IMG/VR virus record: IMGVR_UViG_3300025645_000065
Origin: a virus
Direction: 5' to 3' (one strand)
DNA length: 64,000 nt
Shown here: piece by piece, positions 15,551 through 41,769 of the stretch
How the letters are laid out: each line of letters opens with the position of its first letter
Numbering within the stretch: the first letter of the stretch is position 1
Made by a program: the position numbers and the translations under genes
Notes under the pieces: generated by a model
Database searches by the model: none
What the model was told of the DNA's origin: nothing
What the model saw: only the letters and a program-made list of their open reading frames with translations

Positions 15551-15958
15551 TTACATTTTTTCTAATTTACCTGTCCACCATTCGATGATGTAAGGTATAA
15601 ACTTATCTTTTCCGGATTGTAACATCCACCATTGACCGGAACCGGTGAAGTTGTGATTTTTAATAGCCTTCCCAGAAGGATCCATTAATATAGTCTTTAC
15701 TTCCATTATTCTCGGATTCTCCTCACTAAGGGTGTCGCTATAGCCTGCTACCCCCGGGTCTCTAAAGAAGTACGTAGAAGTAATTTGTACGGTGTACCCA
15801 TCCTTCAACTCTACCATATCTACAGTATCAAAGTAATGATTGGTGATTTCTTTATCTGCTGCCTGGCCGTCGCGGGCATTTATACGGTCACTTGAATACT
15901 GCTCTTCTTTTAAGAGCTTACCCTCGGTAAGGTATTTTTTTAAATCAAAATTGTCCAT
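15551..15958 (-). CDS. MDNFDLKKYLTEG-leader family protein
   Basis: 135 aa. N-terminus and 5' DNA are nearly identical to the gene at 16769. Confidence 0.4.
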   Translation of the reverse strand: MDNFDLKKYLTEGKLLKEEQYSSDRINARDGQAADKEITNHYFDTVDMVELKDGYTVQITSTYFFRDPGVAGYSDTLSEENPRIMEVKTILMDPSGKAIKNHNFTGSGQWWMLQSGKDKFIPYIIEWWTGKLEKM

Positions 15959-15971: not shown

Positions 15972-16769
15972 TTATAATTTGTCTTGTAGTTTTGCAATCT
16001 CTTTGGTCCAGGCAATTATCGACTGCTTGGTCCAGGTAATATGTATACGTTTCCAGCTCTCTATACTACTAGCAAAACTGTCCTCCATCTCTTGATTGTA
16101 GTATGCTTCATCGTTGTTATAATTCTTGGCAGCACCTCGCTTTACGATTTCCTTCCAGGTCGGCCATTCATACCAATCTCCTTTATCCTTTAATGTTTGG
16201 ATGATTTCATCATCGGTTAGTTTTGAATCGTGTGCAAGTTCTGCTTGTGCCTTTGCAACTCTAGTTTCATACTGCTTAATATCTTTATTTAACCTTTCGA
16301 TCCTGTTCATTCTTTTGATCTTCTCAGAGTATTCTTTAGAAATCGTAGAAGATCCTGTTTTTGGGATATTTGTTCTTGTAATATATCTATAATGAAGTCG
16401 TTGGATGTTATAACCGCCTGCATAAATAGCCTCTGTTGAGAAGTTATAGGTAACTCCATCTCTTTCGATCTGTGCGGTTATTTCGATATTGTTCTTAATG
16501 CTCGTATTGACCTTTATTGAGAGTAATGTATCGGAAGGATTAGTATACGTCTCGATTGCCTTAACCATATCAAAGGTTAGATTGAGTCTTGCCATCTCTC
16601 TATCGAAATCAGTAAAGTCTTGTTTAAACTTTTCTTCAAACCAAGCCTCGGTTTGAGATACCATTTCAAAAATAGTAGGCTCTAACTTATTTAAAATAAC
16701 ATTAACAATATTACCTTCTTCAAATAACCTACCCTCGGTAAGGTACTTTTTTAAATCAAAATTATCCAT
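15972..16769 (-). CDS. MDNFDLKKYLTEG-leader family protein
   Basis: 265 aa paralog. Confidence 0.4.
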   Translation of the reverse strand: MDNFDLKKYLTEGRLFEEGNIVNVILNKLEPTIFEMVSQTEAWFEEKFKQDFTDFDREMARLNLTFDMVKAIETYTNPSDTLLSIKVNTSIKNNIEITAQIERDGVTYNFSTEAIYAGGYNIQRLHYRYITRTNIPKTGSSTISKEYSEKIKRMNRIERLNKDIKQYETRVAKAQAELAHDSKLTDDEIIQTLKDKGDWYEWPTWKEIVKRGAAKNYNNDEAYYNQEMEDSFASSIESWKRIHITWTKQSIIAWTKEIAKLQDKL

Positions 16770-16782: not shown

Positions 16783-16798
16783 GATATAAATATACGAA
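16783..16798 (-). promoter_or_regulatory. Motif-2-like (minus strand TTCGTATATTTATATC) upstream of 15972..16769
   Basis: Partial match to motif-2. Confidence 0.25.
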
Positions 16799-18922: not shown

Positions 18923-18940
18923 TATACCTAAAGATACGAA
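18923..18940 (-). promoter_or_regulatory. Motif-1 (minus strand TTCGTATCTTTAGGTATA) after a terminator-like hairpin. Putative promoter.
   Basis: One of at least 14 copies of this motif. Confidence 0.4.
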
Positions 18941-19475: not shown

Positions 19476-19738
19476 AGCTGTATAAAACGCTCTTCCTTTG
19501 GACTACCTGTAGCGGTGACTAGGAACTTACTGCCGGATCCATCCTCAAATCTGATACTATCAACCTTGATTAGGTACTTTATCTCAATTAACTCCTTAGC
19601 TAATCTTAAATGTGTTTCTTGCATTATTGTCATAACTCTTATTCTTTCTATCTTATACCTAAAGATACGAACTCCTGAGTTAGCAAGCAAGCCTTTTCTT
19701 ATGTATTTCCGGAATATCCTATAGGCGTTTTCTACCAA
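19472..19738 (-). CDS. Hypothetical small protein
   Basis: 88 aa ORF. Confidence 0.2.
   Translation of the reverse strand: MVENAYRIFRKYIRKGLLANSGVRIFRYKIERIRVMTIMQETHLRLAKELIEIKYLIKVDSIRFEDGSGSKFLVTATGSPKEERFIQL
19654..19671 (-). promoter_or_regulatory. Motif-1 copy
   Basis: tatacctaaagatacgaa. Confidence 0.4.
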
Positions 19739-20801: not shown

Positions 20802-21023
20802 CTACTCATAAGTTTCTTTGTAATAATCTACTGCACTTCCGTTGCACCCTTGATTAAACTCCCCTTGATAGTAGGCTTCTATCTTCTGTTGCTTATCTAT
20901 TTCTTTTGCTTGTACAGTAAGTTTATCTAACATTGACCATTCCACCTCGCAGTACGACGGGTTTCCGTAGGTTTCTAATTGTTTTTTCAACCAATCAATC
21001 GATGTTTGTTGTTTATTCCCCAT
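20802..21023 (-). CDS. Small protein of the MSNKKQTAVEW...QYYKETYE family
   Basis: Starts MGNKQQTSIDW and ends AVDYYKETYE. Start moved to the internal Met that is conserved across the family. Confidence 0.35.
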   Translation of the reverse strand: MGNKQQTSIDWLKKQLETYGNPSYCEVEWSMLDKLTVQAKEIDKQQKIEAYYQGEFNQGCNGSAVDYYKETYE

Positions 21024-21243
21024 AAGTTTCTTTGTAGTATTGTTCTGCGGTTCTTCTTGGCTCAATGTTAATGTGATATTCATATTCATCATCAGCACCA
21101 TTTTTAAACGCTTCAATTTTCTGCTGCTTGTCCATTTCTTTAGCATCTTTATACGCTTGCAGCATATCATTACCGATAAAGTACTGCATCCTTTCAAGTT
21201 CACTAAAGAACCACTCTACTGCCGTTTGTTTTTTATTGCTCAT
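21013..21243 (-). CDS. Small protein of the MSNKKQTAVEW...QYYKETYE family
   Basis: Starts MSNKKQTAVEWFF and ends EQYYKETYGE. Confidence 0.35.
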   Translation of the reverse strand: MSNKKQTAVEWFFSELERMQYFIGNDMLQAYKDAKEMDKQQKIEAFKNGADDEYEYHINIEPRRTAEQYYKETYGE

Positions 21244-21427
21244 ATCCTTTAATTTTATTAAATCTCTCATCGATGCATTGTCTTTGATACTCAAGATGCA
21301 ATACTTCTGAATGTTGTTTGATTAATAGGTACGCATTATCTAATAATTCTTTTTCTTGTTCTGTTCTCACTCCTGTGTTCATGATGCATAGTGCATCAAT
21401 AAGTGAGAGTTGTTGTTTATTGCTCAT
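21233..21427 (-). CDS. Small protein with the MSNKQQ leader
   Basis: Starts MSNKQQLSLIDAL. Confidence 0.3.
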   Translation of the reverse strand: MSNKQQLSLIDALCIMNTGVRTEQEKELLDNAYLLIKQHSEVLHLEYQRQCIDERFNKIKGYEQ

Positions 21428-21782
21428 AAGTTTCTTTATAGTATTGTTCAGCACTTCTGTTGCACCCTTGATTGAACTCTCCTTGATTATAGGCATCTAT
21501 CTTCTGCGATTCCCAAGGTGCTTTTACGTAATGTTCAACACAATCCTTTAATTCACTTCTACCCCATTCACCTTTGTATGGAAACCAAAGCCTATTTATA
21601 GCATCCCATAAATCGTTTCCAGTTTCCCACTCACCAAAACACATTATAGTTGTACTACCATCTTCATCGTAAAAAGTTGTATAATCACTACTATGGTTAT
21701 GGTGGCAATAAAGTGTTTTGGTTTCTGTACTTGCATAAGCACCTTCTACACTATATGTTGTTTTTACTTTTGTGTGGCTCAT
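21417..21782 (-). CDS. Hypothetical protein with the family C-terminus (NQGCNRSAEQYYKETYEQ)
   Basis: 121 aa ORF. Confidence 0.3.
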   Translation of the reverse strand: MSHTKVKTTYSVEGAYASTETKTLYCHHNHSSDYTTFYDEDGSTTIMCFGEWETGNDLWDAINRLWFPYKGEWGRSELKDCVEHYVKAPWESQKIDAYNQGEFNQGCNRSAEQYYKETYEQ

Positions 21783-23697: not shown

Positions 23698-23734
23698 CGT
23701 TTAAATATTTTTATTTCTTATTTCCTTATTACTC

Positions 23735-23769
23735 CGTAAATATACGAACAAGGGATTGGGGAACCAACC
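23735..23769 (-). promoter_or_regulatory. Motif-2 (minus strand GGTTGGTTCCCCAATCCCTTGTTCGTATATTTACGG) upstream of 23320..23697
   Basis: One of six copies with a conserved GGGGAACCAAC-like box 8-12 bp upstream of TTCGTATATTTACGG. Confidence 0.4.
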
Positions 23770-23948: not shown

Positions 23949-24002
23949 ATTTTGCGTTCTATTGAAAAAGGAAGTTAGTGCGCCTATACCTTTTACCTTT
24001 AA

Positions 24003-24212
24003 CTACTCATAGGTTTCTTTATAGTATTGTTCTGCATCTTTATAAGAACCCCAGTCTGAGCAGCCATAATTAACAGAATCAATTTTCTGCTGCTTGTCAA
24101 TTTCTTTGGCTTGGTCAAATATTCCTTCAAATAATACTTCTTGTTCATACGTTAACCCTATATTTATTCGTTCTCGTAACCATTCTACTGCCGTTTGTTT
24201 TTTATTGCTCAT
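24003..24212 (-). CDS. Small protein of the MSNKKQTAVEW...QYYKETYE family
   Basis: 69 aa ORF. Confidence 0.35.
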   Translation of the reverse strand: MSNKKQTAVEWLRERINIGLTYEQEVLFEGIFDQAKEIDKQQKIDSVNYGCSDWGSYKDAEQYYKETYE

Positions 24213-24387
24213 CTTCTATCCGTTGTATTGCTGTTTTTAAGCCTTGTTTAAATCCTCTGTTAAAATAGTCTGCGTTTGCTTTGACTTGCATTGCTTTTGC
24301 TTGGTTAAATATATCTTTCATACTTAAATTAGGTTTTAGCATTTCACTTTCTAACCATTCAACTGCCGTTTGTTTTTTATTGCTCAT
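24202..24387 (-). CDS. Small protein with the MSNKKQTAVEW leader
   Basis: 61 aa ORF. Confidence 0.3.
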   Translation of the reverse strand: MSNKKQTAVEWLESEMLKPNLSMKDIFNQAKAMQVKANADYFNRGFKQGLKTAIQRIEDEQ

Positions 24388-24610
24388 AAGTTTCTATTTC
24401 TTGTTTAACTTCTTGCCAATAGTCATATAAATCATTTGTGTCCATAAATCCAACGTTTAATATTTCATCAACTGCAATCAATGCACATTGTTGAGCATTC
24501 CATAGTTGAATTTCATCGGAGTAAACAAATCCATCTTCAGTTGTTGCTTCGTTTGACGCAAAAACAAAACACATTTCTATTAACTCTTCTGCTTTTTCTT
24601 TTGGTGTCAT
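24377..24610 (-). CDS. Hypothetical small acidic protein
   Basis: 77 aa ORF. Confidence 0.3.
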   Translation of the reverse strand: MTPKEKAEELIEMCFVFASNEATTEDGFVYSDEIQLWNAQQCALIAVDEILNVGFMDTNDLYDYWQEVKQEIETYEQ

Positions 24611-24776
24611 AAATCTATCTGTTCATTAAGTGCCATTATAGCTTCATCAATAGAGCCTTGTTGCTATCCTGCGCACAACATCAAGCTGCTGAAAGTTTTT
24701 AAGACTTGTGTTCCTTCGAAAGTTTCCGATTGTGTTTCAATGGAGTAGGTGTCTCCGTAATGTGTAAGTGTTATTG

Positions 24777-25265
24777 TCATTTGTTTAGTATTTGTTGTGT
24801 TAATTTTAAATCGTTTTGGTTCTCAGGATGTTCAGCAAAACAATGTTCCCAATATTCTTGAACTGCTCGCTTGATAAATTCCACTTCTTCAATTGTGTAT
24901 GTTTTATCAAAGCCTCTGCTTTCTCCATTTGAACTTTTGAAGGTTAGTTCTTTGCCTTGTGAATCGTAGGTATATTCACAACAAGTTCCTTTTGAATTTT
25001 TATAGGTTAATAAATTACCATTTGAATCGTATGTATATTCACAACTATATCCATTTGAATGTTTGTAGGTTAATACCTTACCTTGTGAATCTCTTGTATA
25101 TTTATACCAAGTTCCATCTGAATTTTTATAGGTTAATAAATTACCATTAGAATCTCTGGTGTATTCACAACTATATCCATTTGAATCTTTGTAATACTTA
25201 TAAACTTTGATACCATTCTCATTGAATAGTTCTAAATTCTCTTCTGTTCCTTGTATGTTTTTCAT
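24777..25265 (-). CDS. YD/RHS-like repeat small protein (MKNIQGTEENLELFNENG leader family)
   Basis: 162 aa. Tandem ~21-aa repeats YKNSDG.S.EYTRDSNGK.LT carrying the Y.YD..G.L signature. Confidence 0.4.
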   Translation of the reverse strand: MKNIQGTEENLELFNENGIKVYKYYKDSNGYSCEYTRDSNGNLLTYKNSDGTWYKYTRDSQGKVLTYKHSNGYSCEYTYDSNGNLLTYKNSKGTCCEYTYDSQGKELTFKSSNGESRGFDKTYTIEEVEFIKRAVQEYWEHCFAEHPENQNDLKLTQQILNK

Positions 25266-25738
25266 TGTTTCTTTTTAAATTGTTCAAACCATTCTTGCTC
25301 TTGAATTTCATCACTAAAAGATAAATATTCTTTAAATTCTTTAAGAATTATCAACACCTCTTCAGGTGTGTAGGTTTTATCAAAGCCTCTGCTTACTCCT
25401 TTTGAATTTTTATAGGTTAGTTCCTTACCTTGTGAATCTCTTGTATATTCACAAGTAAATCCATTTGAATCTTTGAAGGTTAATACCTTACCATTTGAAT
25501 CGTACGTGCGTTCATACCAAGTTCCATATGAATCTTTGAAGGTTAATTCCTTACCATTTGAATCGTAGGTGTATTCATACCAATATCCATTTGAATTTTT
25601 ATAGCTTAACTCATTACCGTTTGAATCTCTTGTGTATTCATAGCTATATCCAAATGGATGTTTAAAATACTCATAAACTTGTTTACCATTATCATTGAAT
25701 AGCTCTAAGTTCTCTTCTGTTCCTTGTATGTTTTTCAT
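25262..25738 (-). CDS. YD/RHS-like repeat small protein
   Basis: 158 aa paralog ending WFEQFKKKQ. Confidence 0.4.
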   Translation of the reverse strand: MKNIQGTEENLELFNDNGKQVYEYFKHPFGYSYEYTRDSNGNELSYKNSNGYWYEYTYDSNGKELTFKDSYGTWYERTYDSNGKVLTFKDSNGFTCEYTRDSQGKELTYKNSKGVSRGFDKTYTPEEVLIILKEFKEYLSFSDEIQEQEWFEQFKKKQ

Positions 25739-25740
25739 TG

Positions 25741-26160
25741 TTATTTTTTTATCTTAAAGTTGCCTAATTTGGATACTAACTCCTCCATAGTGTACTCAGG
25801 TATATCAAAGCCTCTGCTTACTCCTTTTGAATTTTTAAAGGTTAGTTCATTGCCATTTGAATCTCTTGTATATTCATACCAAGTTCCTTTTGAATTTTTA
25901 TAGATTAACTCGTTACCCTTTAAATCGTAGGTGTATTCGTAACTAAATCCATTTGAATCTTTGAAGGTTAGTTCCTTACCGTTTGAATCGTATGTACATT
26001 CATAACTAAATCCATTTGAATTTTTGAAGGTTAATACCTTACCTTGTGAATCGTAAGTACATTCTTCACTATATTCATAAGCTTTAAAATACTCATAAAC
26101 TCTTATGCCATTCTCATTGAATAGCTCCAAATTCTCTTTTGTTCCTAATATGTTTTTCAT
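25741..26160 (-). CDS. YD/RHS-like repeat small protein
   Basis: 139 aa paralog ending SRGFDIPEYTMEELVSKLGNFKIKK. Confidence 0.4.
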   Translation of the reverse strand: MKNILGTKENLELFNENGIRVYEYFKAYEYSEECTYDSQGKVLTFKNSNGFSYECTYDSNGKELTFKDSNGFSYEYTYDLKGNELIYKNSKGTWYEYTRDSNGNELTFKNSKGVSRGFDIPEYTMEELVSKLGNFKIKK

Positions 26161-26162
26161 TA

Positions 26163-27011
26163 TTATTTCTTTTTAAATTGTTCAAACCATTGTTCTAAAT
26201 CTACTGTCACTAATGCTGATTGCAAGGCTTCTGAAATAATTAATTTAACTTCTTCCTCACTATACATTCTTTCTTGTTGCCATTCAGTACCTTCTTTAAA
26301 GTTTTGAATTTGTAATAGTTTACTATCTATCCATTGCTGTGTAGGAACTGGTATCATAGCTGTCTTCCTATTGTAATTAGCTTCGGCAGCTTCTTCAAGT
26401 GTTTCTTGTTTAGTTTCTTCTTTTGTCAGTTTAATTGCACAAGGTTCACATTGAACTGCTCTTTTATCTCCTGTAAATTCTATTTTACAAGTTACACAAG
26501 TACACCCATAATGACCCGGAGCATACCCACCAATTGGATATTTTTGTTTAGTTTTTTCTTTTGGAATGATAGTTTTGTGTCTTACTTTTGTATCAACTTC
26601 CCATTCAGATGGTAATAAAACCTCTTTCCATACTCCGTTGTTAGATAAGTATTCTTTCTCAACCTCAACCTCCTCACAACTTGGATTCTTAACAAACCAT
26701 TCTAAGAACTCATCATCAATAGCTTGTACACCATCTTTGATTAAATCTTGGTCTGTTGTTAGAATGATTTGTCTTGGTTTATTGTTACTTATTAAAGCCA
26801 TTGTGTTTTGCCATAACCAAACCCTACCATTATTATAAACCCAAATATTATTTTCAAATCCAGTAATTTCTTCATCAGATGTGATGTAGATGTGTTTTGC
26901 AATATTGGTTGGATGTTGAGAAGGAAATTCATCTAATTCTAATCTTCTTCTTAGATTATTAATCCATAACCTACTTGGTTTGTCTGTTGGAATTACGTGT
27001 ATATTTTTCAT
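26163..27011 (-). CDS. Hypothetical protein with a Cys-rich zinc-ribbon segment. Its C-terminus is shared with the gene at 41787..42500.
   Basis: 282 aa. Contains HYGCTCVTCKIEF...CEPC and a C-terminal EGTEWQQERMYSEE...WFEQFKKK module. Confidence 0.3.
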   Translation of the reverse strand: MKNIHVIPTDKPSRLWINNLRRRLELDEFPSQHPTNIAKHIYITSDEEITGFENNIWVYNNGRVWLWQNTMALISNNKPRQIILTTDQDLIKDGVQAIDDEFLEWFVKNPSCEEVEVEKEYLSNNGVWKEVLLPSEWEVDTKVRHKTIIPKEKTKQKYPIGGYAPGHYGCTCVTCKIEFTGDKRAVQCEPCAIKLTKEETKQETLEEAAEANYNRKTAMIPVPTQQWIDSKLLQIQNFKEGTEWQQERMYSEEEVKLIISEALQSALVTVDLEQWFEQFKKK

Positions 27012-27012
27012 A

Positions 27013-27372
27013 TTATTTTTTTATTTTAAAGTTTCCAATTTTGGATACTAACTCTTCCATAGTGTACTCAGGTATATCAAAGCCTCTGCTTTCTCCATTT
27101 GAATCTTTGTATGTTAATTCATTGCCATTTGAATCTCTTGTATATTCACAACTAAATCCATCTGAATTTTTGGAGGTTAATATCTTACCATTTGAATCTC
27201 TTGTAAATTCATAACTATATCCATCTGAATTTTTATAGGTTAATACCTTACCATTTGAATCTCTTGTATATTCACAACTAAATCCATTTGAATTTTTAAA
27301 ATACTCATAAACTCTTACACCCTCTTGATTGAATAGCTCTAATTTCTCTTCTGTTCCTAATATGTTTTTCAT
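27013..27372 (-). CDS. YD/RHS-like repeat small protein
   Basis: 119 aa paralog, preceded by motif-2. Confidence 0.4.
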   Translation of the reverse strand: MKNILGTEEKLELFNQEGVRVYEYFKNSNGFSCEYTRDSNGKVLTYKNSDGYSYEFTRDSNGKILTSKNSDGFSCEYTRDSNGNELTYKDSNGESRGFDIPEYTMEELVSKIGNFKIKK

Positions 27373-27388
27373 CTTATTTCTTATTACT

Positions 27389-27424
27389 CCGTAAATATAC
27401 GAACAGTATCTTGGGGAGCCAACA
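27389..27424 (-). promoter_or_regulatory. Motif-2 copy upstream of the YD-repeat gene 27013..27372
   Basis: ccgtaaatatacgaacagtatcttggggagccaac. Confidence 0.4.
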
Positions 27425-27430
27425 AAAATC

Positions 27431-27739
27431 TTATTTGTTTTTGTTAAACTCTTTCCAATTATTATAAGTCAAACCCCATTGTAGACTGAACCATTGCATT
27501 TCCTTCTCTGCTTGCTTAGCATACTTGTTTAAGTTTTTCATGAGGTATTTTTTACCCCATTTTTTAAACTCCTCACCTTGCTCAACCGTCATTGTGTACT
27601 TTTGAAACCAATTATCTACACCTACCACATCCTGATACGTAACATCATGACCAGCAATGATAAACATTTGATTGATTAAATCAATAACTGCCTTATCTTG
27701 CTTTTCCTCTCGACTTAATCGTTTACGTTTAACTTGCAT
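27431..27739 (-). CDS. Hypothetical protein
   Basis: 102 aa ORF. Confidence 0.3.
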   Translation of the reverse strand: MQVKRKRLSREEKQDKAVIDLINQMFIIAGHDVTYQDVVGVDNWFQKYTMTVEQGEEFKKWGKKYLMKNLNKYAKQAEKEMQWFSLQWGLTYNNWKEFNKNK

Positions 27740-28068
27740 AATTCGTAATTGCTATTTTCTGTCTTAAATATAATATAATTCTCTCGCTCTTCCACAATCT
27801 CTGTAATGGGGGTACATTGCCAAGTAAAGAATTGATTGAATGGAGACATAAGTAAACTCCTACCAATGGCAGGTTCATCATGTTTAGATTTAAAACGACC
27901 TTCATCGTTAAACTCAATCCACATTATCCTAGCTGATTCTTTTAGTAGATTATCTCGTTCACGAACCAATCTATATTTAGGTTCTTCTGTGTCTAAGTTT
28001 AATTCTAATTTCAACTCACCATCTAAACCTAATGTTACTGGTATTTTAGTTTGTTTTATCTTGCTCAT
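27715..28068 (-). CDS. Hypothetical protein
   Basis: 117 aa ORF. Confidence 0.3.
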   Translation of the reverse strand: MSKIKQTKIPVTLGLDGELKLELNLDTEEPKYRLVRERDNLLKESARIMWIEFNDEGRFKSKHDEPAIGRSLLMSPFNQFFTWQCTPITEIVEERENYIIFKTENSNYELCKLNVND

Positions 28069-28748
28069 ATAATTTCAAATACATTTCCATTACTGCTTAA
28101 TTTACCGAACTTACCATCAGTAACCACAGAACCATTTGAGAATATTGTATCTAGCTCTGGTATTGTTCTAGTACCAGCATTGATAATATCATTGTAATTA
28201 TGGATATGGCCAAACATCACAAATCCAGGATTTACTTCTATAACTCTATTCAATAATGATTTATCCCCACAATGCTCCATACTACCAACTCTATCATAAG
28301 ATAGATCTAACATACCTTTTGGAGGTCCGTGAACAACAATAATATCAACATCTTCATCTATAACATTTCTCCACATTCGTTCTAGTTTATTTCTATCCTT
28401 ATTGAACGACCATCCATATCCAAAAGTTGGGGTGTAGGGTGAACCAAAGATCTTTAAACCCTCTATTTGGATAGTTTCATTTTCAAGATAGTGAATACCA
28501 TGATCTTTAAAATCTGATTTAGTGACAAACCTTTTCTCAATACTAGTATCATGATTACCGGCTACAAATATTTTATGCTGTATAGGTAAATTAGCAAACC
28601 AATCAATAAATGCTCTAACTTCAGGTTCATTACTATAAGGGTCTCTTGGATTGCTACAATCACCACTAAAAATAACCATAGCAACACCTTCAGGTATTTC
28701 TAGTAAGTCATGGAAGGTGTGTGTATCGCTTATATGCCAGATTTTCAT
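28065..28748 (-). CDS. Calcineurin-like metallophosphoesterase
   Basis: 227 aa carrying the MPP motifs GDCSNPRD, GNHD and GHIH. Confidence 0.55.
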   Translation of the reverse strand: MKIWHISDTHTFHDLLEIPEGVAMVIFSGDCSNPRDPYSNEPEVRAFIDWFANLPIQHKIFVAGNHDTSIEKRFVTKSDFKDHGIHYLENETIQIEGLKIFGSPYTPTFGYGWSFNKDRNKLERMWRNVIDEDVDIIVVHGPPKGMLDLSYDRVGSMEHCGDKSLLNRVIEVNPGFVMFGHIHNYNDIINAGTRTIPELDTIFSNGSVVTDGKFGKLSSNGNVFEII

Positions 28749-29167
28749 TTTTTTATTTTAAAGTTACCTAATTTATTAACTAACTCCTCCATTGTGTACT
28801 CGGGTATATCAAAGCCTCTTGTTTCACCATTTGAATCTTTGAATGTTAATTCATTACCTTGTGAATCCCTTGTGTATTCATAACTATATCCATCTGAATT
28901 TTTGTAGTTTAATATATTACCTTTTGAATCGTAAGTGTATTCATAACTATATCCATCTGAATTTTTGAAGGTTAGTACTTTACCATTTGAATCTCTTGTA
29001 TATTCACAACTAAATCCATCTGAATTTTTATAGGTTAGTACATTACCATTTAAATCGTATGTGTAGTCATAACTTACTCCAGATAAATGTTTAAAATACT
29101 CATAAACTTTTATACCCTCTTTAGTAAATAATTCTAATTTCTCTTCTGTTCCTTGTATGTTTTTCAT
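28745..29167 (-). CDS. YD/RHS-like repeat small protein
   Basis: 140 aa paralog. Confidence 0.4.
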   Translation of the reverse strand: MKNIQGTEEKLELFTKEGIKVYEYFKHLSGVSYDYTYDLNGNVLTYKNSDGFSCEYTRDSNGKVLTFKNSDGYSYEYTYDSKGNILNYKNSDGYSYEYTRDSQGNELTFKDSNGETRGFDIPEYTMEELVNKLGNFKIKK

Positions 29168-29168
29168 A

Positions 29169-29528
29169 TTATTTTTTTATTTTAAAATTACCTAATTTAT
29201 TAACTAATTCTTCCATAGTGTACTCAGGTATATCAAAGCCTCTGCTTACACCATCTGAATTTTTGAAGGTTAATTCATTGCCATTTAAATCGTATGTAGC
29301 TTCATAACTAAATCCATCTGAATTTTTATAGGTTAATACCTTACCATTTGAATCTCTTGTAAATTCATAACTATATCCATCTGAATTTTTATAGGTTAAT
29401 ACCTTACCATTTGAATCTCTTGCAAATTCATAACTATATCCATATGAATCTTTGTAATACTCATAAACTCTAATACCATTCTTATTGAATAGGTTTAATT
29501 TGTCTTCTGTTCCTAATATGTTTTTCAT
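29169..29528 (-). CDS. YD/RHS-like repeat small protein
   Basis: 119 aa paralog. Confidence 0.4.
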   Translation of the reverse strand: MKNILGTEDKLNLFNKNGIRVYEYYKDSYGYSYEFARDSNGKVLTYKNSDGYSYEFTRDSNGKVLTYKNSDGFSYEATYDLNGNELTFKNSDGVSRGFDIPEYTMEELVNKLGNFKIKK

Positions 29529-29794
29529 TTTTTAATTTTATTATTTCTTAGTATTCGAATTAAAGTAGTTAAATCAGCAATTTCCCCAAAAGTACAGGTT
29601 TCTGAATCGAATACAGATATTGTCCATCCATGTTTTTCAATTTCATCACTTGCGTTAGATATTAAACAAATATCCCCGATATCGAGTGTATAATAATACC
29701 AACCCTTAGCAGCACCTGAGTTCTTAGCTGTCTCACGTTGAATCTTAAATTTTAATTTAATAAGTTCTTGTTCTGTTATTCCTGTTGTGTTCAT
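29525..29794 (-). CDS. Hypothetical protein
   Basis: 89 aa ORF, preceded by motif-2. Confidence 0.3.
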   Translation of the reverse strand: MNTTGITEQELIKLKFKIQRETAKNSGAAKGWYYYTLDIGDICLISNASDEIEKHGWTISVFDSETCTFGEIADLTTLIRILRNNKIKK

Positions 29795-29805
29795 ATTTTA
29801 TTATA

Positions 29806-29840
29806 CCGTAAATATACGAAAAGGAATTGGATAAACCAAC
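29806..29840 (-). promoter_or_regulatory. Motif-2 copy upstream of 29525..29794
   Basis: ccgtaaatatacgaaaaggaattggataaaccaac. Confidence 0.35.
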
Positions 29841-29872
29841 TCCTTTTTCATATACCTTTTAATACTGTTTAA

Positions 29873-30838
29873 TTACTTAATACCTAACATTGTACTTGAT
29901 TTATCACCTAACATTGTTGTTGGTAATTTACCATTCCATTTATTAATCCATTCTAATTGTAATAGTAAAGGTGTTAATGTTACTTGTTTCATTCTATTTG
30001 CTTCTGCTTCTGCCTTTGCTGCTGTAAGCATTGCCTCGGCATTACCATTTGCTGTTGCTACTTTAATTTTAGCTCGTGCTTCAGCAGTTTTAACTTCATT
30101 TTCTGCTCTCAATGCTGCTTGTACTGCATTATTCTTAGCTTCAATAGATTTCTTAAATGTATTAGGGTAAATTAAATTTGATGTAAATTGATTAATAACA
30201 AATCCTTCCTTTAATAATTGGCCATCTAGTAATCTACGTACTTCTATTTCAAATACAGCTCTGTTAGAGATCAATTCATCAGCTGTGTATTTATTAGTTG
30301 CTAAACGAAATGCATCATATACTGCAGTCTTTAAGAAACCTTCTTCAATATCCTCTAATGGTCTACGGTATTTAGCGAATATTGCAGGAACCTTATCACG
30401 TTGAACTGAATAGTTCATGATTGGGGATACTGAGAATTCACTTCCGTCTTTTGAATTTACAATAAATGAATTATCTTCATCTTCAGTTTTCTTATATTCT
30501 TTATGTTGAATAAAAGTTGGAAACTCGTAGATTTTTGTTGTGAATGTATTATAAAACACCCACCCTGTACACTCTGCTACATCTCCAACACCCTTGTTAG
30601 ATCCGAACATGTTTACTTTTACTCCTACATGCCCTGCATCAATACGCTCACATGAATTGAATAATGTTACTAATAGGATAAGACCTATAACTCCTGCGCT
30701 AATTCCTTTAATCATTTGTTTAATTTTTAATTGTTGTTGGTTGTAAAATTTTATTTGTAATTCGTCTAATTCTTCTGTGGTCCTACGATCACCATTCTCA
30801 TTCCATTGGTTGTCAAACCTGTTAAATTTATTTATCAT
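29873..30838 (-). CDS. SPFH/band-7 (prohibitin/HflK-like) membrane protein
   Basis: 321 aa with an N-terminal transmembrane helix and an Ala/Glu-rich C-terminus (AAKAEAEANRMKQ) typical of SPFH proteins. Confidence 0.5.
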   Translation of the reverse strand: MINKFNRFDNQWNENGDRRTTEELDELQIKFYNQQQLKIKQMIKGISAGVIGLILLVTLFNSCERIDAGHVGVKVNMFGSNKGVGDVAECTGWVFYNTFTTKIYEFPTFIQHKEYKKTEDEDNSFIVNSKDGSEFSVSPIMNYSVQRDKVPAIFAKYRRPLEDIEEGFLKTAVYDAFRLATNKYTADELISNRAVFEIEVRRLLDGQLLKEGFVINQFTSNLIYPNTFKKSIEAKNNAVQAALRAENEVKTAEARAKIKVATANGNAEAMLTAAKAEAEANRMKQVTLTPLLLQLEWINKWNGKLPTTMLGDKSSTMLGIK

Positions 30839-31043
30839 CTTTTGTTATTTTTTTAAATATTATATACCCAATTGTACAAATGCAAAGGAGGTTTAAGAAT
30901 AGTCCCGTATAGAATGCTATATCGTTTGGATAATTCATTAAAAAATTTCCTAGTTCGATTAAATTTAATACTGCTACCGCTCCTATAAACCATAGGAAGT
31001 AGTTAAGGAAAAGTTCGTAAAATTCTTTTAGTTTTTCTTTCAT
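30828..31043 (-). CDS. Small membrane protein
   Basis: 71 aa with two hydrophobic helices. Confidence 0.3.
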   Translation of the reverse strand: MKEKLKEFYELFLNYFLWFIGAVAVLNLIELGNFLMNYPNDIAFYTGLFLNLLCICTIGYIIFKKITKDDK

Positions 31044-31050: not shown

Positions 31051-31068
31051 TATACCTAAAGATACGAA
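31051..31068 (-). promoter_or_regulatory. Motif-1 copy fused to a GC hairpin plus T-tract (terminator)
   Basis: tatacctaaagatacgaa followed by aaaaaagcctgcagaagcaagcttttt. Confidence 0.4.
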
Positions 31069-32569: not shown

Positions 32570-32587
32570 TATACCTAAAGATACGAA
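32570..32587 (-). promoter_or_regulatory. Motif-1 copy
   Basis: tatacctaaagatacgaa. Confidence 0.4.
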
Positions 32588-32786: not shown

Positions 32787-33350
32787 TTACTCATTATCTG
32801 ATAGGTGTTTTATTATTGGATCTGTTAAGAAGTCTACCCACATCTCTACTGAGGTTGTATGTAGCACTTCATAGACTTTATCAAGTGGTAAATTCATTAT
32901 CTCTACTAGTTTCTCTTTCAAGATAGGTCCTTCATCTACTCCCTCTGTTACTCTATGGATAACACAGCCAGACACACTTAGACCCAAGCGATAAGCCTTC
33001 TCTTGAGGGTCCTTTCCTTTAAGTATTCCATCCTGTAGAGATAATGCCCCTGGATGTCCATTAAACATATTAGGGTGCTTCTGTAGAACCTCTGCTGGTA
33101 TTATTCTAAGCCATCCATGTAATGTAATTAAGGCTGACTCTTCTCCGAATGCTTCTAAGTAGTCCTCTACTGAAGGAGTTCCTTTTAGGTATGTAATTTC
33201 TCTTGTCGCCAATGCTGGATGTAGAGTACCTATACTCTCAGGCTTCCTGTTAGTTATAAGCCTATCAGGCCACTTACCTAACCTTTCTGCTATCTGTGCT
33301 ATTTCGGATCCTGTCTGCGAAAAACAACATATCCATTTTATATCTTTCAT
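32787..33350 (-). CDS. Formyltransferase-domain protein (PurN/Fmt N-terminal-domain-like)
   Basis: 187 aa. The segment LHGWLRIIPAEVL...NGHPGAL matches formyl-transferase core motifs. Confidence 0.45.
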   Translation of the reverse strand: MKDIKWICCFSQTGSEIAQIAERLGKWPDRLITNRKPESIGTLHPALATREITYLKGTPSVEDYLEAFGEESALITLHGWLRIIPAEVLQKHPNMFNGHPGALSLQDGILKGKDPQEKAYRLGLSVSGCVIHRVTEGVDEGPILKEKLVEIMNLPLDKVYEVLHTTSVEMWVDFLTDPIIKHLSDNE

Positions 33351-34505: not shown

Positions 34506-34522
34506 GCTTTTTTTTCAATTTG

Positions 34523-34595
34523 TAGTCAGGACAGGTCTCGAACCTATACTCTTCTGTACCAAAAACAGACGTGTTGCCAATTACACCACCTGACT
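34523..34595 (-). tRNA. tRNA-Gln(UUG), canonical 73-nt cloverleaf
   Basis: Hand fold: acceptor AGTCAGG/CCTGACT, D stem GTGT/ACAC, anticodon stem TCTGT/ACAGA, loop TTTTGGT, T loop TTCGAGA, A73. Confidence 0.6.
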
Positions 34596-34707
34596 AAATT
34601 ATTAATATAAAAGTAATAAGCTAAGGATTTTCACCTCCGAAGTCTCTTTATTAGATTGTTCCTTATCTAGCGAGTGCAATCGCGTATTACGACACTTATT
34701 ACTTCTG

Positions 34708-34819
34708 TAGTCAGGACAGGATTCGAACCTGTATTTGTATATGTTTGTGACCTCGACTGCCGTTGTATCCTCAAACTAAATCACCTGCCGATGTGCGTCT
34801 ACCATTCCGCCACCTGACT
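34708..34819 (-). ncRNA. tRNA-scaffold element B, 112 nt
   Basis: 5' AGTCAGGTGGCGGAATGGTAGACGC plus a 62-nt divergent core plus ACAGGTTCGAATCCTGTCCTGACTA 3'. Confidence 0.35.
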
Positions 34820-34925
34820 ATATTAAATGGGTAACCTCAACCAGTTTATGGTTATGCGTTATGACAATCATCTCGTGAATGTCATAGATAGACCCCATAT
34901 GCTATCTATTAGTTATTACCATTTG

Positions 34926-35010
34926 TAGTCAGGACAGGATTCGAACCTGTATTGTTGTTACATCACTCACATTCATTAGTGAGTAGCGTCTACCATTCCG
35001 CCACCTGGCT
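34926..35010 (-). tRNA. tRNA-like (type-II length, 85 nt) on the shared scaffold. The anticodon loop is non-canonical and may be 8 nt.
   Basis: Same acceptor/D/T arms. Candidate anticodon stem CTCAC/GTGAG with loop TAATGAAT. Confidence 0.35.
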
Positions 35011-35071
35011 ATATTCTAATTCTATGCTCTCCGCCCTAACACGGCTATGAATTAGTAACAGTCCCTTTTTG

Positions 35072-35212
35072 TAGTCAGGACAGGATTCGAACCTGTATAG
35101 ATTTAAAGATATAATCTCCCATCACTCGTGTTTGTAATGTGTCCTCCAGTTTCCCCTATTCAACACTCTTTTAGGTACTGACCAGCGCGTATACCAATTC
35201 CGCCACCTGACT
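35072..35212 (-). ncRNA. tRNA-scaffold element D, 141 nt
   Basis: Shared 5' and 3' tRNA arms with a ~90-nt core. Confidence 0.3.
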
Positions 35213-35293
35213 AAATGGTGGAGCGTCACTTATTTCTAAGTTATCCACCTCAGTTACATTATCTCACGATAAGAGGCTTTACTGAGCCCAAGG

Positions 35294-35400
35294 TAGTCAG
35301 GACAGGATTCGAACCTGTATGTTTAATAATTCTACACACCTGACGCTACACCAGGCATATTATTAAACTCACTTGCGTCTACCAATTTCGCCACCTGACT
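35294..35400 (-). ncRNA. tRNA-scaffold element E, 107 nt
   Basis: Shared arms. The D loop is AAATTGGTAGA. Confidence 0.3.
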
Positions 35401-35449
35401 ATTTTAATTTTATTACCAACATGTCAATGAACTCTTATTCTTTCTATCT

Positions 35450-35467
35450 TATACCTAAAGATAAGAA
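35450..35467 (-). promoter_or_regulatory. Motif-1 copy inside the tRNA array
   Basis: tatacctaaagataagaa. Confidence 0.35.
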
Positions 35468-35503
35468 CTAATTCTATCTTAAGCAAGCTTTTTTTTCAAT
35501 TTG

Positions 35504-35579
35504 TAGTCAGGACAGGATTCGAACCTGTACTCGGTGATACATTTGCAACTGCTCATTCCGATGCCAACTTTTCCTGACT
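35504..35579 (-). tRNA. tRNA-like, 76 nt. Shared acceptor and T arm but a divergent 5' half. Possible GCA (Cys) anticodon, poorly folded.
   Basis: 5' AGTCAGGAAAAGTTGGCATCGGAATGAGCAGTTGCAAATG...ACAGGTTCGAATCCTGTCCTGACTA 3'. Confidence 0.3.
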
Positions 35580-35660
35580 CCGATGTCTTTCCATCAGTAT
35601 AGATTTAGTATTGACTTACCAATGAACTGGCATTGGTACTTGCCCCAAACCAAGGCTAGG

Positions 35661-35760
35661 TAGTCAGGACAGGATTCGAACCTGTAACTTTTTCCGACCT
35701 AATTTACAACCTTATCTATCGACTCAGTGTCGTTGCGTCTACCAATTTCGCCACCTGACT
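35661..35760 (-). ncRNA. tRNA-scaffold element G, 100 nt
   Basis: Shared arms with a divergent core. Confidence 0.3.
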
Positions 35761-35953
35761 ATTTTATTAAAATGGCAAAGATTATAATACCACTTCTTCA
35801 ATATAAGGGATTTGTCTGTACCCCTTTGTTTTATATCTAGAAAGCAACCTATTAAAGTGTTTTTTATCTTTACAGATTATAGTGATAGTTCCTCCGCTTT
35901 TTTCCATTTTCAATATAAGGTTCATACTTTTTTTATTTTATTTCTTATTATCT

Positions 35954-35970
35954 TATACCTAAAGATACGG
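35954..35970 (-). promoter_or_regulatory. Motif-1 copy inside the tRNA array
   Basis: tatacctaaagatacgg. Confidence 0.35.
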
Positions 35971-36007
35971 ACTAATTCCGTACCAGGCAAGCTTTTTTTT
36001 CAATTTG

Positions 36008-36117
36008 TAGTCAGGACAGGATTCGAACCTGTATGTTTACTCGTTTAGGCAATCAGACGAATCACTCTGAACCACTTAACTTTCAACGGTCTGCGTCTAC
36101 CATTCCGCCACCTGACT
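36008..36117 (-). ncRNA. tRNA-scaffold element H, 110 nt
   Basis: Shared arms with a divergent core. Motif-2 lies upstream. Confidence 0.3.
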
Positions 36118-36164
36118 ATTTTAATTTTATTACCAACATGTCAATGAACCTAACCCTTTTACGT

Positions 36165-36198
36165 CGTAAATATACGACCGCTCCCTCGGGGAACCAAC
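36165..36198 (-). promoter_or_regulatory. Motif-2 copy inside the tRNA array, upstream of scaffold element H
   Basis: cgtaaatatacgaccgctccctcggggaaccaac. Confidence 0.35.
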
Positions 36199-36210
36199 AT
36201 TGTGTTTTTG

Positions 36211-36270
36211 TGGAGTGAAGGGATTTGAACCCTTTGTCTGTACCTGTACGACTTTAACCAAACCACTCCT
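36211..36270 (-). ncRNA. Truncated or degenerate tRNA-like element. T arm GGGTTCAAATCCC and acceptor GGAGTG/CACTCC, but no D arm.
   Basis: Hand inspection only. Confidence 0.2.
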
Positions 36271-36326
36271 GGACCTGCAGACCCGTTATAACTTATGCAT
36301 CAACCTCAATGCTTCAACCCTTTGGC

Positions 36327-36417
36327 TATTACGGGTGTGGACTCGAACCACATTTTTCAGTTACCTATGCTTTTTCAAACTTGGTTTTAGTTGCTTTCCT
36401 TGCGCAAGTTCCATAAC
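36327..36417 (-). ncRNA. Degenerate tRNA-like element, 91 nt. T arm TGTGG-TTCGAGT-CCACA and D arm TTGC/GCAA are present, but no clean anticodon stem.
   Basis: Hand inspection only. Confidence 0.2.
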
Positions 36418-36683
36418 TAATTTCCAGTATCGCCACGTGGAGGCGTTTGATGGATACCGCTGAGCTTCGTTATTCTTCTTTCGAATATTCTTTCATACTT
36501 TACTTTAGCCTTATCTCGAGTTGACTATTTCTAGCTTCTTATACAATTTATTTCTTTTCGTTATCCCCTACTGCCCGCTTGGATACGTTTACGAAAGCTT
36601 CCCGGTTTGTTCAATTCTGTTACGAACCCCAAACGAATATATGGGTTAAGAACCAATGCTTGTATCCGGTAATCAATACGGTG

Positions 36684-36757
36684 ATGTTGTGATAGGAATC
36701 GAACCTACTTACGGCAACTCCTGTTACGGACCCGCTCTGCCAATGAGCTACACAACA
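36684..36757 (-). tRNA. tRNA-like, 74 nt. Acceptor TGTTGTG/CACAACA, D stem GCTC/GAGC, T loop TTCGATT, and a weak anticodon stem.
   Basis: Hand fold. The isotype could not be resolved. Confidence 0.35.
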
Positions 36758-36802
36758 AACTTGCAACTTTGTCTTTCTATGTTTCGGGGTTGCCACCTTC
36801 TG

Positions 36803-36911
36803 TAGTCAGGACAGGATTCGAACCTGTAATGTAATATGGAGCTTAATTCAGCATACTTACCTTTCGTCTTACAACTATTCAATAATGCGTCTACCATTCC
36901 GCCACCTGACT
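36803..36911 (-). ncRNA. tRNA-scaffold element I, 109 nt
   Basis: Shared arms with a divergent core. Confidence 0.3.
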
Positions 36912-37038
36912 ATTTGCTGACTAATAAGGATTCGAACCTTAAACCTGAGCTCCAATTACGGCCTCCGTGCACCTTTACACCATAATCAATCGATGACTTG
37001 CAAATCATCAGTCTTAAGGTAATTAATCTTAAGATTTG

Positions 37039-37110
37039 TAGCGGGGGCAGGATTCGAACCTGCGACCTTCGGGTTATGAGCCCGCTGAGCTACCACTGCT
37101 CTACCCCGCA
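37039..37110 (-). tRNA. Initiator tRNA-fMet(CAU)
   Basis: Anticodon stem-loop GGGCTCATAACCC with three G-C pairs, a 1:72 mismatch (T/T), D stem GAGC/GCTC and T loop TTCGAAT. Close to bacterial initiator tRNA. Confidence 0.7.
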
Positions 37111-37116
37111 ATATAG

Positions 37117-37190
37117 AACTACCCATAGGACTCGAACCTATAACCCTTCGGCGATTGCCGATGTGCAAACCAATTTACACCATAAGTAGC
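37117..37190 (-). tRNA. tRNA-like, 74 nt. Acceptor GCTACTT/GGGTAGT with G-U pairs, T loop TTCGAGT, degenerate D and anticodon arms.
   Basis: Hand fold. In place of a 7-nt anticodon loop there is a 4-nt loop on stem TCGGC/GCCGA. Confidence 0.25.
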
Positions 37191-37285
37191 TATTCAAGAA
37201 GACAGCCAGAAATTAGTGACGTCAAATCTCTTTAAGCTATGTGAACTATCTTCTTGTTGGGATCAGTTAATTACTCCGATCTTTG

Positions 37286-37382
37286 TAATTATGATTGGAT
37301 TCGAACCAATTCCAGCTTTACAATAAAGAGTATATTTCAACTCAACCTTTGTGAGGTGCCGCCAACCAATGGCCTCATAATC
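37286..37382 (-). ncRNA. tRNA-like element, 97 nt. Acceptor GATTATG/CATAATT, T arm ATTGG-TTCGAAT-CCAAT.
   Basis: Hand inspection only. Confidence 0.25.
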
Positions 37383-37678
37383 ATTTTTAGTCTTTTCCTT
37401 ACCTCTTAATAATTACACTGCCAACCGGATGTTACTGTCCGGTGCTTACCAATCATACTGGGGCAATTATTACATTGAGCAGATACTCAGAATCGAACTG
37501 AGATCTCCAGATTGGAAGTCTGGAGTAATAACCGTTATACGATATCTGCTTATTTTTAATATCGAGAATTGTAATGTACTATTTCTATTAATGGCAGACT
37601 CACCTACATTCGGATTTTTAAAACTCCTCTCTATTAAATTATTACCAATACGTCAAAGAACTCTTATTCTTTCTATCT

Positions 37679-37898: not shown

Positions 37899-37950
37899 TA
37901 TACCTAAAGATACGAAAAAAGGCCTGCCGAAGCAAGCCTTTTCTTTTTTA
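37899..37950 (-). promoter_or_regulatory. Motif-1 copy fused to the terminator hairpin aaaaaaggcctgccgaagcaagccttttc
   Basis: Direct sequence inspection. Confidence 0.45.
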
Positions 37951-41714: not shown

Positions 41715-41734
41715 CTTTTATTTCCTTATTACGC

Positions 41735-41769
41735 CCGGAATATACGACCGCTATTTTGGGGAACCAACC
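41735..41769 (-). promoter_or_regulatory. Motif-2 copy upstream of 41382..41714
   Basis: ccggaatatacgaccgctattttggggaaccaacc. Confidence 0.35.

Follow-up and report, generated by a model that had tools for sequence, protein, structure and literature searches.

The 64,000-nucleotide stretch of viral DNA analysed here (IMG/VR virus record IMGVR_UViG_3300025645_000065, hereafter the window) encodes seven small proteins, YD paralogs A to G, each consisting of one short ladder of YD/RHS hairpin repeats. They belong to a phage-restricted family of mini YD ladders with fixed caps, a length that varies by whole units, exchangeable tails and a non-structural genomic setting. The repeat class is a known one and the array is not a new kind of system. 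To our knowledge, YD/RHS repeats have been met almost solely as the walls of large toxin-encapsulating shells; the family represents a second use of the repeat, in which a few hairpins form a free-standing, length-adjustable sheet with fixed ends. What is established below is its anatomy, the class of its repeat, the predicted fold, where it occurs, how selection acts on it and the genomic setting of its genes. As to function, we propose that these are non-enzymatic binding or adaptor proteins acting inside the infected cell, a proposal to which we give about an even chance because its functional part is inferred throughout.

All coordinates are positions in the window, which covers 64 kb of a probably larger genome. 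The window is part of an uncultured large phage that is related to Flavobacterium phages and probably has a Bacteroidota host. A metagenomic contig of 67,632 bp encodes proteins identical to those of the window. Flavobacterium phage immuto is the closest cultured relative, with a DNA polymerase identity of 63%. A megablast search with positions 24000-31000 gave no nucleotide match among 50,697 GenBank phage records. Almost every sizeable open reading frame (ORF) is on the minus strand. A single structural gene can be recognised, that of a baseplate wedge protein (5605-7464); beyond about 15 kb the window consists of small ORFs among genes for replication, nucleotide metabolism and glycosyltransferases.

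Anatomy, predicted fold and spread of the YD proteins

When a hidden Markov model (HMM) derived from 49 metagenomic members of the family is run on the window ORFs, it retrieves exactly seven of them, at E values from 3e-61 to 3e-80 (Table 1). A preliminary description of this DNA had announced eight paralogs while giving coordinates for seven. All the ORFs that it named exist, on the minus strand, but the supposed eighth is protein Z, which is unrelated and not a YD protein.

Stepping back 21 residues at a time from a conserved SRGFD joint reveals a perfect 21-residue register in the paralogs. Each consists of a 10-residue MKNI leader, a degenerate unit (LELFNxxGxxVYEYFKxSxGY), three to six canonical units, the SRGFD joint and a tail. 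In paralog C, the degenerate unit is one residue short as the result of a deletion. With the degenerate unit included, the register count is 4-7 units rather than the 4-8 repeats originally claimed. The same periodicity is seen in the DNA, where Tandem Repeats Finder detects an array with a 63-bp period in each of the seven genes, 3.2-6.3 copies long and with 0% indels. A 126-bp super-period scores higher than the 63-bp one, and a 473-bp tandem spans genes A and B. In paralog G the super-repeat (126 bp, 89% matches) corresponds to an alternation of Y and R at unit position 6.

At least three types of tail are present, one more than had been described. The K-type tail, IPEYTMEELVxKxGNFKIKK, is found in C, D, E and F, and WFEQFKKK(Q) ends B and G, while paralog A has a tail ending in LTQQILNK. 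All of them open with the same helix start, in the form YTMEELV, YTIEEVE, YTPEEVL or YTLEEAA. In paralog G the ladder is joined to a complete ETLEEAA...GAKWQAERMYSEE...WFEQFKKK module. The A-type and B-type tails have orthologs in other phages (for example P0075, P0094, P0015 and P0260); the first two of these are full-length orthologs of paralog A, at 72-74% identity. Neighbouring genes abut, with spacers of 0-2 nucleotides or ATGA overlaps such as the one between the stop of B and the start of A. The lysine-rich gene ends (KIKK or FKKK followed by the stop) supply an A-rich stretch in front of the next ATGAAAAACAT start, which may in part account for the conservation of the gene boundaries.

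That the repeats are genuine YD/RHS repeats, as first suspected, is borne out by family models. PF05593 (RHS_repeat) exceeds its gathering threshold of 22 bits in five of the seven paralogs (A 32.7, C 24.2, D 23.6, E 37.1 and G 32.9) and falls slightly under it in B (21.3) and F (20.4). TIGR01643 (YD_repeat_2x, cut-off 15.8) scores 23.5-41.2 bits in all four paralogs scanned (A, B, E and G; C, D and F were outside the scan). With a profile of 46 members of 119 residues, the sole sequence matches in the PDB are Rhs effectors and teneurins, with RhsA (7q97) at 8.5e-8. PHROGs returns only weak matches, to a 2333-position RHS-like profile of unknown function. The tails have no match in Pfam, PHROGs, NCBIfam or PADLOC. 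Pfam matches to Lipocalin_4, Hpf1_C, Ribosomal_L27 and Phage_Y01A are sub-threshold or spurious, and the Ribosomal_L27 match is responsible for two Joint Genome Institute (JGI) 'L27' names. Antifreeze-type TxT arrays were rejected by inspection of the repeat consensus, with no dedicated test.

The structure model of paralog D (119 residues) supports the earlier view of a beta-hairpin protein. It is a ladder of hairpins with nine strands, closest to the shells of Rhs, teneurin and Tc proteins. According to DSSP, the modelled strands occupy unit positions 1-6 and 12-17. In the model the sheet begins with a strand made of leader residues 11-14, with a predicted local distance difference test (pLDDT) score of 95-98, and the nearly invariant C-terminal 20 residues are modelled at pLDDT 67-74. 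The paralogs are very hydrophilic and mildly acidic (grand average of hydropathy about -1, maximal 15-residue hydropathy at most 0.87, isoelectric point 4.6-5.5) and rich in aromatic residues (13-20% Y+F+W), a composition that suits a sheet with both sides exposed. A hydrophobic N-terminus or signal peptide was looked for in the paralogs and none was found, and the idea that they are secreted was rejected.

The preliminary description had proposed a search for the family in related phages; members were found in metagenomic phage contigs. A word-indexed metagenome search with paralog E yields 679 cluster representatives, nearly all of them small proteins with the same ends. Among 125 retrieved sequences, lengths of 98 (26 sequences), 119 (49) and 140 (12) residues occur, as well as 162; 76 start with MKNIL and 74 end with LGNFKIKK. 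Forms of 77, 183 and 196 residues occur in viral contigs, and the family lengths differ by steps of 21 residues (77/98/119/140/162). The number of units thus differs, both among paralogs and in the family at large, on a background of constant termini, as had been noticed for the paralogs at the outset. Many members carry the JGI label 'YD repeat-containing protein'.

An exhaustive profile search of 1.84 billion representatives gives 12,954 matches at E <=0.001. They are a mixture of giant RHS proteins, this family, and other small YD-ladder families with different end modules. Among the latter (P0248, P0268, P0286, P0307, P0312, P0339, P0285, P0366, P0373, P0380 and P0391), one group has a C-terminal ...AGC(R/Q)xF...EA(L/I)xHW...ERAK(L/I)F and another an N-terminal head ...L..xxAC..G(I)..F. 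Short YD ladders seem to have been combined repeatedly with small terminal modules.

The family appears, from these sequence searches, to be essentially restricted to uncultured phages, since it is nearly absent from species genomes and absent from cultured phages in GenBank. In 185,579 bacterial and archaeal species genomes only four loci are found, one of them full-length (L043, on a 16-kb contig of a metagenome-assembled genome), and the 50,697 phage records contain no family member. A tblastn search of these records with paralog G hits three records representing two phages, namely a giant RHS-like ORF of a Streptococcus phage and gp42 of Verrucomicrobia phage P8625. Members are present on IMG/VR viral contigs and on contigs of up to 183 kb with phage-type genes. 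On the contigs of 112-183 kb the YD genes lie among small ORFs and genes for DNA ligase, DNA polymerase, thymidylate synthase, RNA ligase and NAMPT, not among structural genes. Other loci have one to four copies within about 20 kb, as against six within 4.8 kb, plus G, in the window.

The 152-residue P8625 gp42 is a related YD-hairpin protein, with 21-residue GYWxxxEYDxxGxxTYYENS units, encoded between helicase and resolvase genes in a replication module. Like gp42, the MORN-repeat proteins of giant viruses and phages and protein A0A6J7XC94 of an uncultured Caudovirales are short stand-alone hairpin ladders of unknown function. All these differ from the present family in leader, tail and consensus, having neither the MKNI leader nor the GNFKIKK tail, and MORN repeats form a separate family.

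The consensus of 288 canonical units from many phages is S-x-E-x-T-[YR]-D-S-N-G-[NK]-x-L-T-[YF]-K-[DN]-S-x-G-x. Nine positions (E3, T5, D7, G10, L13, T14, K16, S18 and G20) are at least 94% conserved; the most variable are 2, 4, 12, 19 and 21. On the strands, position 2 is Y, S, C, F, H or W, position 4 is Y, R, C, S or K, and position 12 is E, V, I or T. In the 28 units of the window, the five most variable positions have a ratio of non-synonymous to synonymous polymorphism (pN/pS) of 0.88, as against 0.56 for the other positions. The ratio drops to 0.37 for the leader and to 0.11 for the K-type tail, indicating strong purifying selection on the termini. The family had been called diversifying. 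A value of 0.88 denotes relaxed constraint, not positive selection, and recent divergence is not borne out either. Whole paralogs are 57-80% identical to one another (the upper figure being that for D and F) and 70-78% identical to members in other phages. Being about as distant from one another as from their relatives elsewhere, the paralogs represent subtypes of long standing and not an array in rapid divergence. Individual units are 79-97% identical in nucleotides within and between paralogs, and near-identical units are common to D, F and G.

One tail module also exists apart from the ladders. A module of about 70 residues, (K)ETLEEAA...GAKWQxERMYSEE...FKEWFEQFKKK, is absent from Pfam and PHROGs. 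It is encoded by free-standing small genes of 65-137 codons, often two per locus (for example L013 9986-10249, L016 7561-7758 and L010 8685-8978), and is also fused to Z-like and YD ends. In the window it forms the C-terminal part of G (41787-42020) and the end of Z (26163-26290). The C-terminal 44 residues of G are 91% identical to the stand-alone 97-residue protein in L010.

A proposed role and its alternatives

The proposal of an intracellular binding or adaptor role can be put as follows. Each paralog would be a small soluble cytoplasmic 'mini-RHS' protein, a single ladder of 4-7 YD hairpin units of 21 residues, in which the N-terminal MKNI.GTEENLELFN segment would form part of the sheet. 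The near-invariant joint and helix (SRGFD-x-x-YTxEE-hydrophobic) would cap the other end and bear the exchangeable C-terminal module. By strand alternation on the model, positions 2, 4, 6, 12, 14 and 16 should line one face of the sheet and positions 1, 3, 5, 13, 15 and 17 the opposite one. This would place the variable positions 2, 4 and 12 on one face, with the E3, T5, L13 and Y/F15 ladders opposite. The conserved face and the termini would stabilise the fold and provide the docking surface for a constant partner, or for other copies of the protein. The variable face, with positions rich in Tyr, Ser, Cys and Arg, is suggested by the strand register to bind a ligand and, together with the number of units, would determine which one. 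The type of tail would pick a second contact. In evolution, units of 63 or 126 bp would be gained and lost through unequal recombination, whole genes would be duplicated in tandem, and recombination at the common YTxEE helix would swap tails, G being a likely product of the joining of a YD ladder to the free-standing module. Early or middle accessory expression could be driven by the repeated hairpin-plus-promoter-like cassettes described below.

A bolder version, which we consider rather unlikely, is that the family is a natural phage-borne modular binder scaffold comparable to ankyrin or leucine-rich repeats. Each paralog would capture, through its variable face and unit number, a different host protein, for instance one involved in defence or targeted during takeover. 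Through the invariant tail, all of them would dock to a common hub or be joined head-to-tail into longer sheets, and the seven copies would amount to a multi-target toolkit for counter-defence or takeover of a hitherto undescribed kind. If host factors are indeed bound, the family would add a new class to the accessory or anti-host proteins of phages and offer binder engineering a compact natural scaffold. If the proteins have no specific role, what remains is a well-described orphan repeat family. The locus is also a clear non-T4 example of accessory-gene expansion by repeat-unit slippage, gene tandems and module swapping beside promoter-terminator cassettes.

Several points weigh against a binding or adaptor role. 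Searches of Pfam, PHROGs, NCBIfam and PADLOC give nothing past 'YD repeat', and no paper on small phage YD-repeat proteins was found in the literature. The faces of the sheet are assigned from antiparallel strand alternation and register, not from coordinates. No site class in the repeat units is clearly above a pN/pS of 1, with the exception of the dimorphic position 6, where the Y/R dimorphism stems from the two-unit super-repeat and not from diversification. The promoter-like boxes are putative, and the expression class is deduced from position alone. Finally, phage immuto has no copy of the family, which means that the genes are dispensable and leaves room for a neutral or selfish status.

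An alternative that we likewise regard as rather unlikely is that the proteins are associated with the virion, either as internal proteins that are recognised via leader or tail, packaged and injected, or as surface or decoration proteins with a polysaccharide-binding, Tyr-rich sheet. Fixed termini with a variable body are the signature of the T4-type polymorphic internal proteins, which share a capsid-targeting leader, and the choline-binding and clostridial CROP hairpin repeats bind polysaccharide. Like T4 IPI-III, the present family is a set of otherwise variable small proteins with a conserved terminal sequence in an accessory locus. The lower pLDDT of the near-invariant C-terminal 20 residues would suit a docking motif, many aromatic and polar residues are exposed at the surface, and RHS repeats have been proposed to bind carbohydrate (PMC3482391). 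However, the one part of the window that is recognisably structural does not include these genes, and a replication or nucleotide-metabolism setting is found here, in five other large contigs and in P8625. Moreover, unlike the leader of IPI-III, that of the YD proteins is built into the predicted first strand, so that it is no targeting peptide that could be detached; a protease cleavage motif was not identified either, and the signal peptide is lacking.

Somewhat less probable still is the view that the array is mostly a by-product of genome mechanics, that is, of the ease with which small repeat genes flanked by mobile promoter-terminator cassettes and conserved boundaries would be duplicated and shuffled in a hyperplastic region, to persist with little or no specific function for the phage. 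Unequal recombination is still at work, as shown by the 63-bp repeats within genes and by the A/B tandem. The window also contains several further families of small genes in multiple copies, and copy number spans 0 (immuto) to 7 (the window). The cassettes resemble PeSL elements, the promoter-terminator stem-loop cassettes that mediate modular shuffling in the hyperplastic regions of T4-type phages (PMC2839356, PMC4122927). In both, a repeated stem-loop and a promoter or promoter-like box stand directly upstream of small accessory genes, a layout that offers a route for duplication and shuffling. The present cassettes differ from PeSL in sequence (TTCGTAT[A/C]TTTA...), phage lineage and host (Bacteroidota-type promoters), and are known here from sequence alone. 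Set against a purely mechanical origin are the integrity of all seven ORFs, the strong purifying selection on their termini, the conservation of the scaffold residues across many phages and the maintenance of distinct tail subtypes from phage to phage, which together argue for a selected function.

That the genes are remnants of RHS polymorphic toxins (orphan Rhs pieces) or targets of a diversity-generating retroelement (DGR) is effectively excluded. The matches to RHS repeat models and Rhs effector structures would fit the former and the many Asn- or Tyr-type variable codons the latter, but every paralog lacks the PxxxxDPxGL core motif, NF041261 (RHS_core) scores 19.5-27.7 bits against a cut-off of 2000, and a search for toxin or immunity domains, PAAR, VgrG and signal peptides found none. 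The genes have their own conserved start and stop, and hundreds of full-length homologs are of the same small size. Variation is not limited to one variable copy against a template. The absence of a reverse transcriptase, already noted from the sequence, is upheld by a Pfam scan of about 30 of the window's larger ORFs (160 residues or more), which gives no match, so that a DGR in the window is unlikely.

The YD proteins share with RHS/YD shell proteins (RhsA 7q97 and 8qjc, YenC2 4igl, teneurins) the same hairpin repeat of about 21 residues, YxYDxxGxL. Whereas RHS and Tc shells exceed 1000 residues and form a closed cocoon, the family members compared have 119-237 residues and about 9-15 strands. 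Membership of the Rhs core or Tc-type shells, which calls for many tens of strands and more than about 700 residues, can be rejected. Unlike the Rhs/Tc systems, the family is phage-encoded and apparently cytoplasmic, and has no N-terminal plug, DPxGL autoprotease core, enclosed toxin, immunity gene or secretion adaptor. Next to the YD genes lie further YD genes and those for Z and a phosphatase. Being too short for an RHS shell and devoid of protease, toxin and secretion parts, these proteins cannot work as RHS toxins. The single-layer sheets of Borrelia OspA and of the CPAP/SAS-4 TCP/G-box have no sequence relationship to the family; they are not built of YD units and, unlike it, sit between globular domains or bind defined peptides.

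Cassettes and neighbouring genes

The promoter-like box TTCGTATATTTACGG occurs exactly in three places. With up to three mismatches the number of hits rises to 14, where 2.4 would be expected; every one is on the coding strand, and the part below 15 kb, which contains the baseplate gene, has none. We take the box to resemble the Bacteroidota -7 element TAnnTTTG. Two classes of cassette can be distinguished. In class I a short TTGGyTCCCCAA hairpin is followed by TATATTTACGG; in class II a GC-rich AAAAGGCTTGCTTCGGCAGGCCTTTT hairpin is followed by TATCTTTAGGT. Cassettes sit 11-30 nucleotides ahead of start codons, including that of the DNA polymerase gene, and most have a hairpin in front. Similar ones precede YD genes in L005 and L006. 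A sigma-70 scan, which is of the wrong promoter type for Bacteroidota, finds 33 sites against 41 expected. The cassettes may be early or middle promoters and substrates for gene shuffling.

Two YD transcription units can be inferred from the cassettes. Unit 1, from 29794 to 27431, would comprise the 89-residue ORF, F, E, the metallophosphatase gene and two small ORFs, and unit 2, from 27372 to 24777, would comprise D, Z, C, B and A. D is the first gene after its cassette, and another cassette (29806-29847) separates the SPFH gene from the YD unit.

Table 1. Coordinates of the YD genes, their cassettes and other features of the window
Feature	Position	Strand	Length (residues)	Remarks
YD paralog A	24777-25265	-	162	1 degenerate + 4 canonical units; A-type tail ...EHPENQNDLKLTQQILNK; HMM 1.2e-66
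YD paralog B	25262-25738	-	158	4 canonical units; tail end WFEQFKKKQ; HMM 2.4e-65
YD paralog C	25741-26160	-	139	4 canonical units; K-type tail (GNFKIKK); HMM 3.7e-75
YD paralog D	27013-27372	-	119	3 canonical units; K-type tail
YD paralog E	28745-29167	-	140	4 canonical units; K-type tail; HMM 3.1e-80
YD paralog F	29169-29528	-	119	3 canonical units; K-type tail; HMM 3e-61
YD paralog G	41787-42500	-	237	6 canonical units; fused module; HMM 1.1e-70
Protein Z	26163-27011	-	282	not a YD protein; conserved N-domain MKNIHxIPTDKPSRL...
Calcineurin-like metallophosphatase	28065-28748	-	227	between E and D; PF00149 9.3e-14
89-residue ORF	29525-29794	-	89	heads upstream unit; ends ...NNKIKK; overlaps start of F
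SPFH/Band_7 membrane protein	29873-30838	-	321	PF01145 8.5e-20
Cassette	27389-27422	-		hairpin TTGGCTCCCCAA then box TTCGTATATTTACGG, 16 nucleotides upstream of D ATG
Cassette	29806-29847	-		terminator-like hairpin (12 bp stem) then TTCGTATATTTACGG, 11 nucleotides upstream of ATG of 89-residue ORF
Class II cassette	42709-42749	-		GC hairpin AAAAGGCTTGCTTCGGTGAGTCTTTC then TTCGTATCTTTAGGT, upstream of 60-residue membrane ORF (42509-42691) preceding G
Cassette boxes, exact TTCGTATATTTACGG	29806-29820, 27389-27403, 23734-23748	-		
Cassette boxes, others	63210-63224, 60807-60821, 43713-43727, 42709-42723, 41734-41748, 37902-37916, 36164-36178, 32573-32587, 31054-31068, 19657-19671, 18926-18940, 16784-16798, 15162-15176	-		
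Z-like loci in other contigs	L042 10360-11208; L049 17364-18173; L051 8215-9444			
38-residue ORF (putative)	24664-24780	-	38	MTITLTHYGDTYSIETQSETFEGTQVLKTFSSLMLCAG
Other multi-copy small-gene families	24003-24212, 24202-24387, 20802-21170, 21417-21782, 13557-13925, 15551-15958, 15972-16769, 37966-38553	-		
DUF285-repeat protein	827-3157	-	776	E 7e-72
PF00551 formyltransferase	32787-33350	-		
tRNA cluster	34522-37549	-		six tRNAs
GTP cyclohydrolase I (FolE)	40632-41342	-		
Glycosyltransferase block	45731-53150	-		at least five genes
Cpn60/GroEL-type chaperonin	56246-57853	-		

The preliminary description had placed a metallophosphatase and an SPFH protein inside the cluster. Both identities are confirmed by Pfam, but the SPFH gene lies upstream of the YD transcription unit as inferred here and is not part of it. 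The start of the metallophosphatase gene overlaps the stop of E, and PDC-S10, a candidate defence model of PADLOC, matches the whole length of the protein (E 3.8e-57), whereas the YD proteins, Z and the SPFH protein have no match among the PADLOC defence models. Orthologs of the metallophosphatase with 57-61% identity are encoded in L006, L013, L042 and L051, at 1.1-6.7 kb from family-HMM hits, of which the one in L013 is weak (E 5.6e-15). A 45% identical ortholog of the SPFH protein lies 1.0-1.3 kb from YD genes in L049/L050, where the gene order is YD, YD, metallophosphatase, 64-residue ORF, Band_7. As the distance and order of these partners are variable, the association looks like shared synteny in one phage group rather than a functional or operon unit.

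Protein Z has the MKNI start in common with the YD proteins and shares with B and G the C-terminal GAKWQxERMYSEE...WFEQFKKK module. Its N-terminus, given in Table 1 with I, also reads MKNIHxLPTDKPSRL. A zinc-ribbon protein had been announced in the cluster; the CxCxxC...CxxC motif is indeed present in Z (residues 170-191), but no family model matched it. In three lineages Z is the immediate neighbour of a YD gene, which it follows here and in L042 and precedes in L049/L050. Because the model of Z has no structural relative in the PDB and its family is very large (at least 7999 hits) and uncharacterised, this adjacency yields no functional lead. Over a stretch of 121 residues, Z has 67% identity to a 409-residue protein of L051 that contains the homing-endonuclease domains NUMOD4/HNH_3.

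The 89-residue ORF matches no Pfam family and has no homolog in the fetched loci. At the other end of the array, the start of the putative 38-residue ORF overlaps the stop codon of paralog A (ATGA), and this ORF takes up most of the 166-nucleotide gap ahead of the next gene.

Other features of the window

The modular use of heads and tails seems to be common in this genome at large. In the other multi-copy small-gene families with common ends (Table 1), two genes start with MSNKKQTAVEWL, three finish with ...(Q/D)YYKETYE and four start with M(D/H/N)NFDL(K/A/R)(K/Q)(Y/F)L.

The 776-residue protein encoded near the beginning of the window contains four DUF285 repeats and is possibly a receptor-binding or surface protein. 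The window further encodes a Cpn60/GroEL-type chaperonin and a block of glycosyltransferases. The tRNA cluster comprises tRNAs for Gln, Val, Ile, Met and Gly and a sixth (34925-35010) to which ARAGORN gives a four-base anticodon (atga) without amino-acid assignment.

Genes for GTP cyclohydrolase I and for a PF00551 formyltransferase are also present. In the related phage vB_FspM_immuto_2-6A, the PF00551 protein DpdN has been proposed to make the 7-deazaguanine DNA modification fdPreQ1 (PMC10516641). By analogy, the DNA of the present phage may carry a modification like that of immuto.

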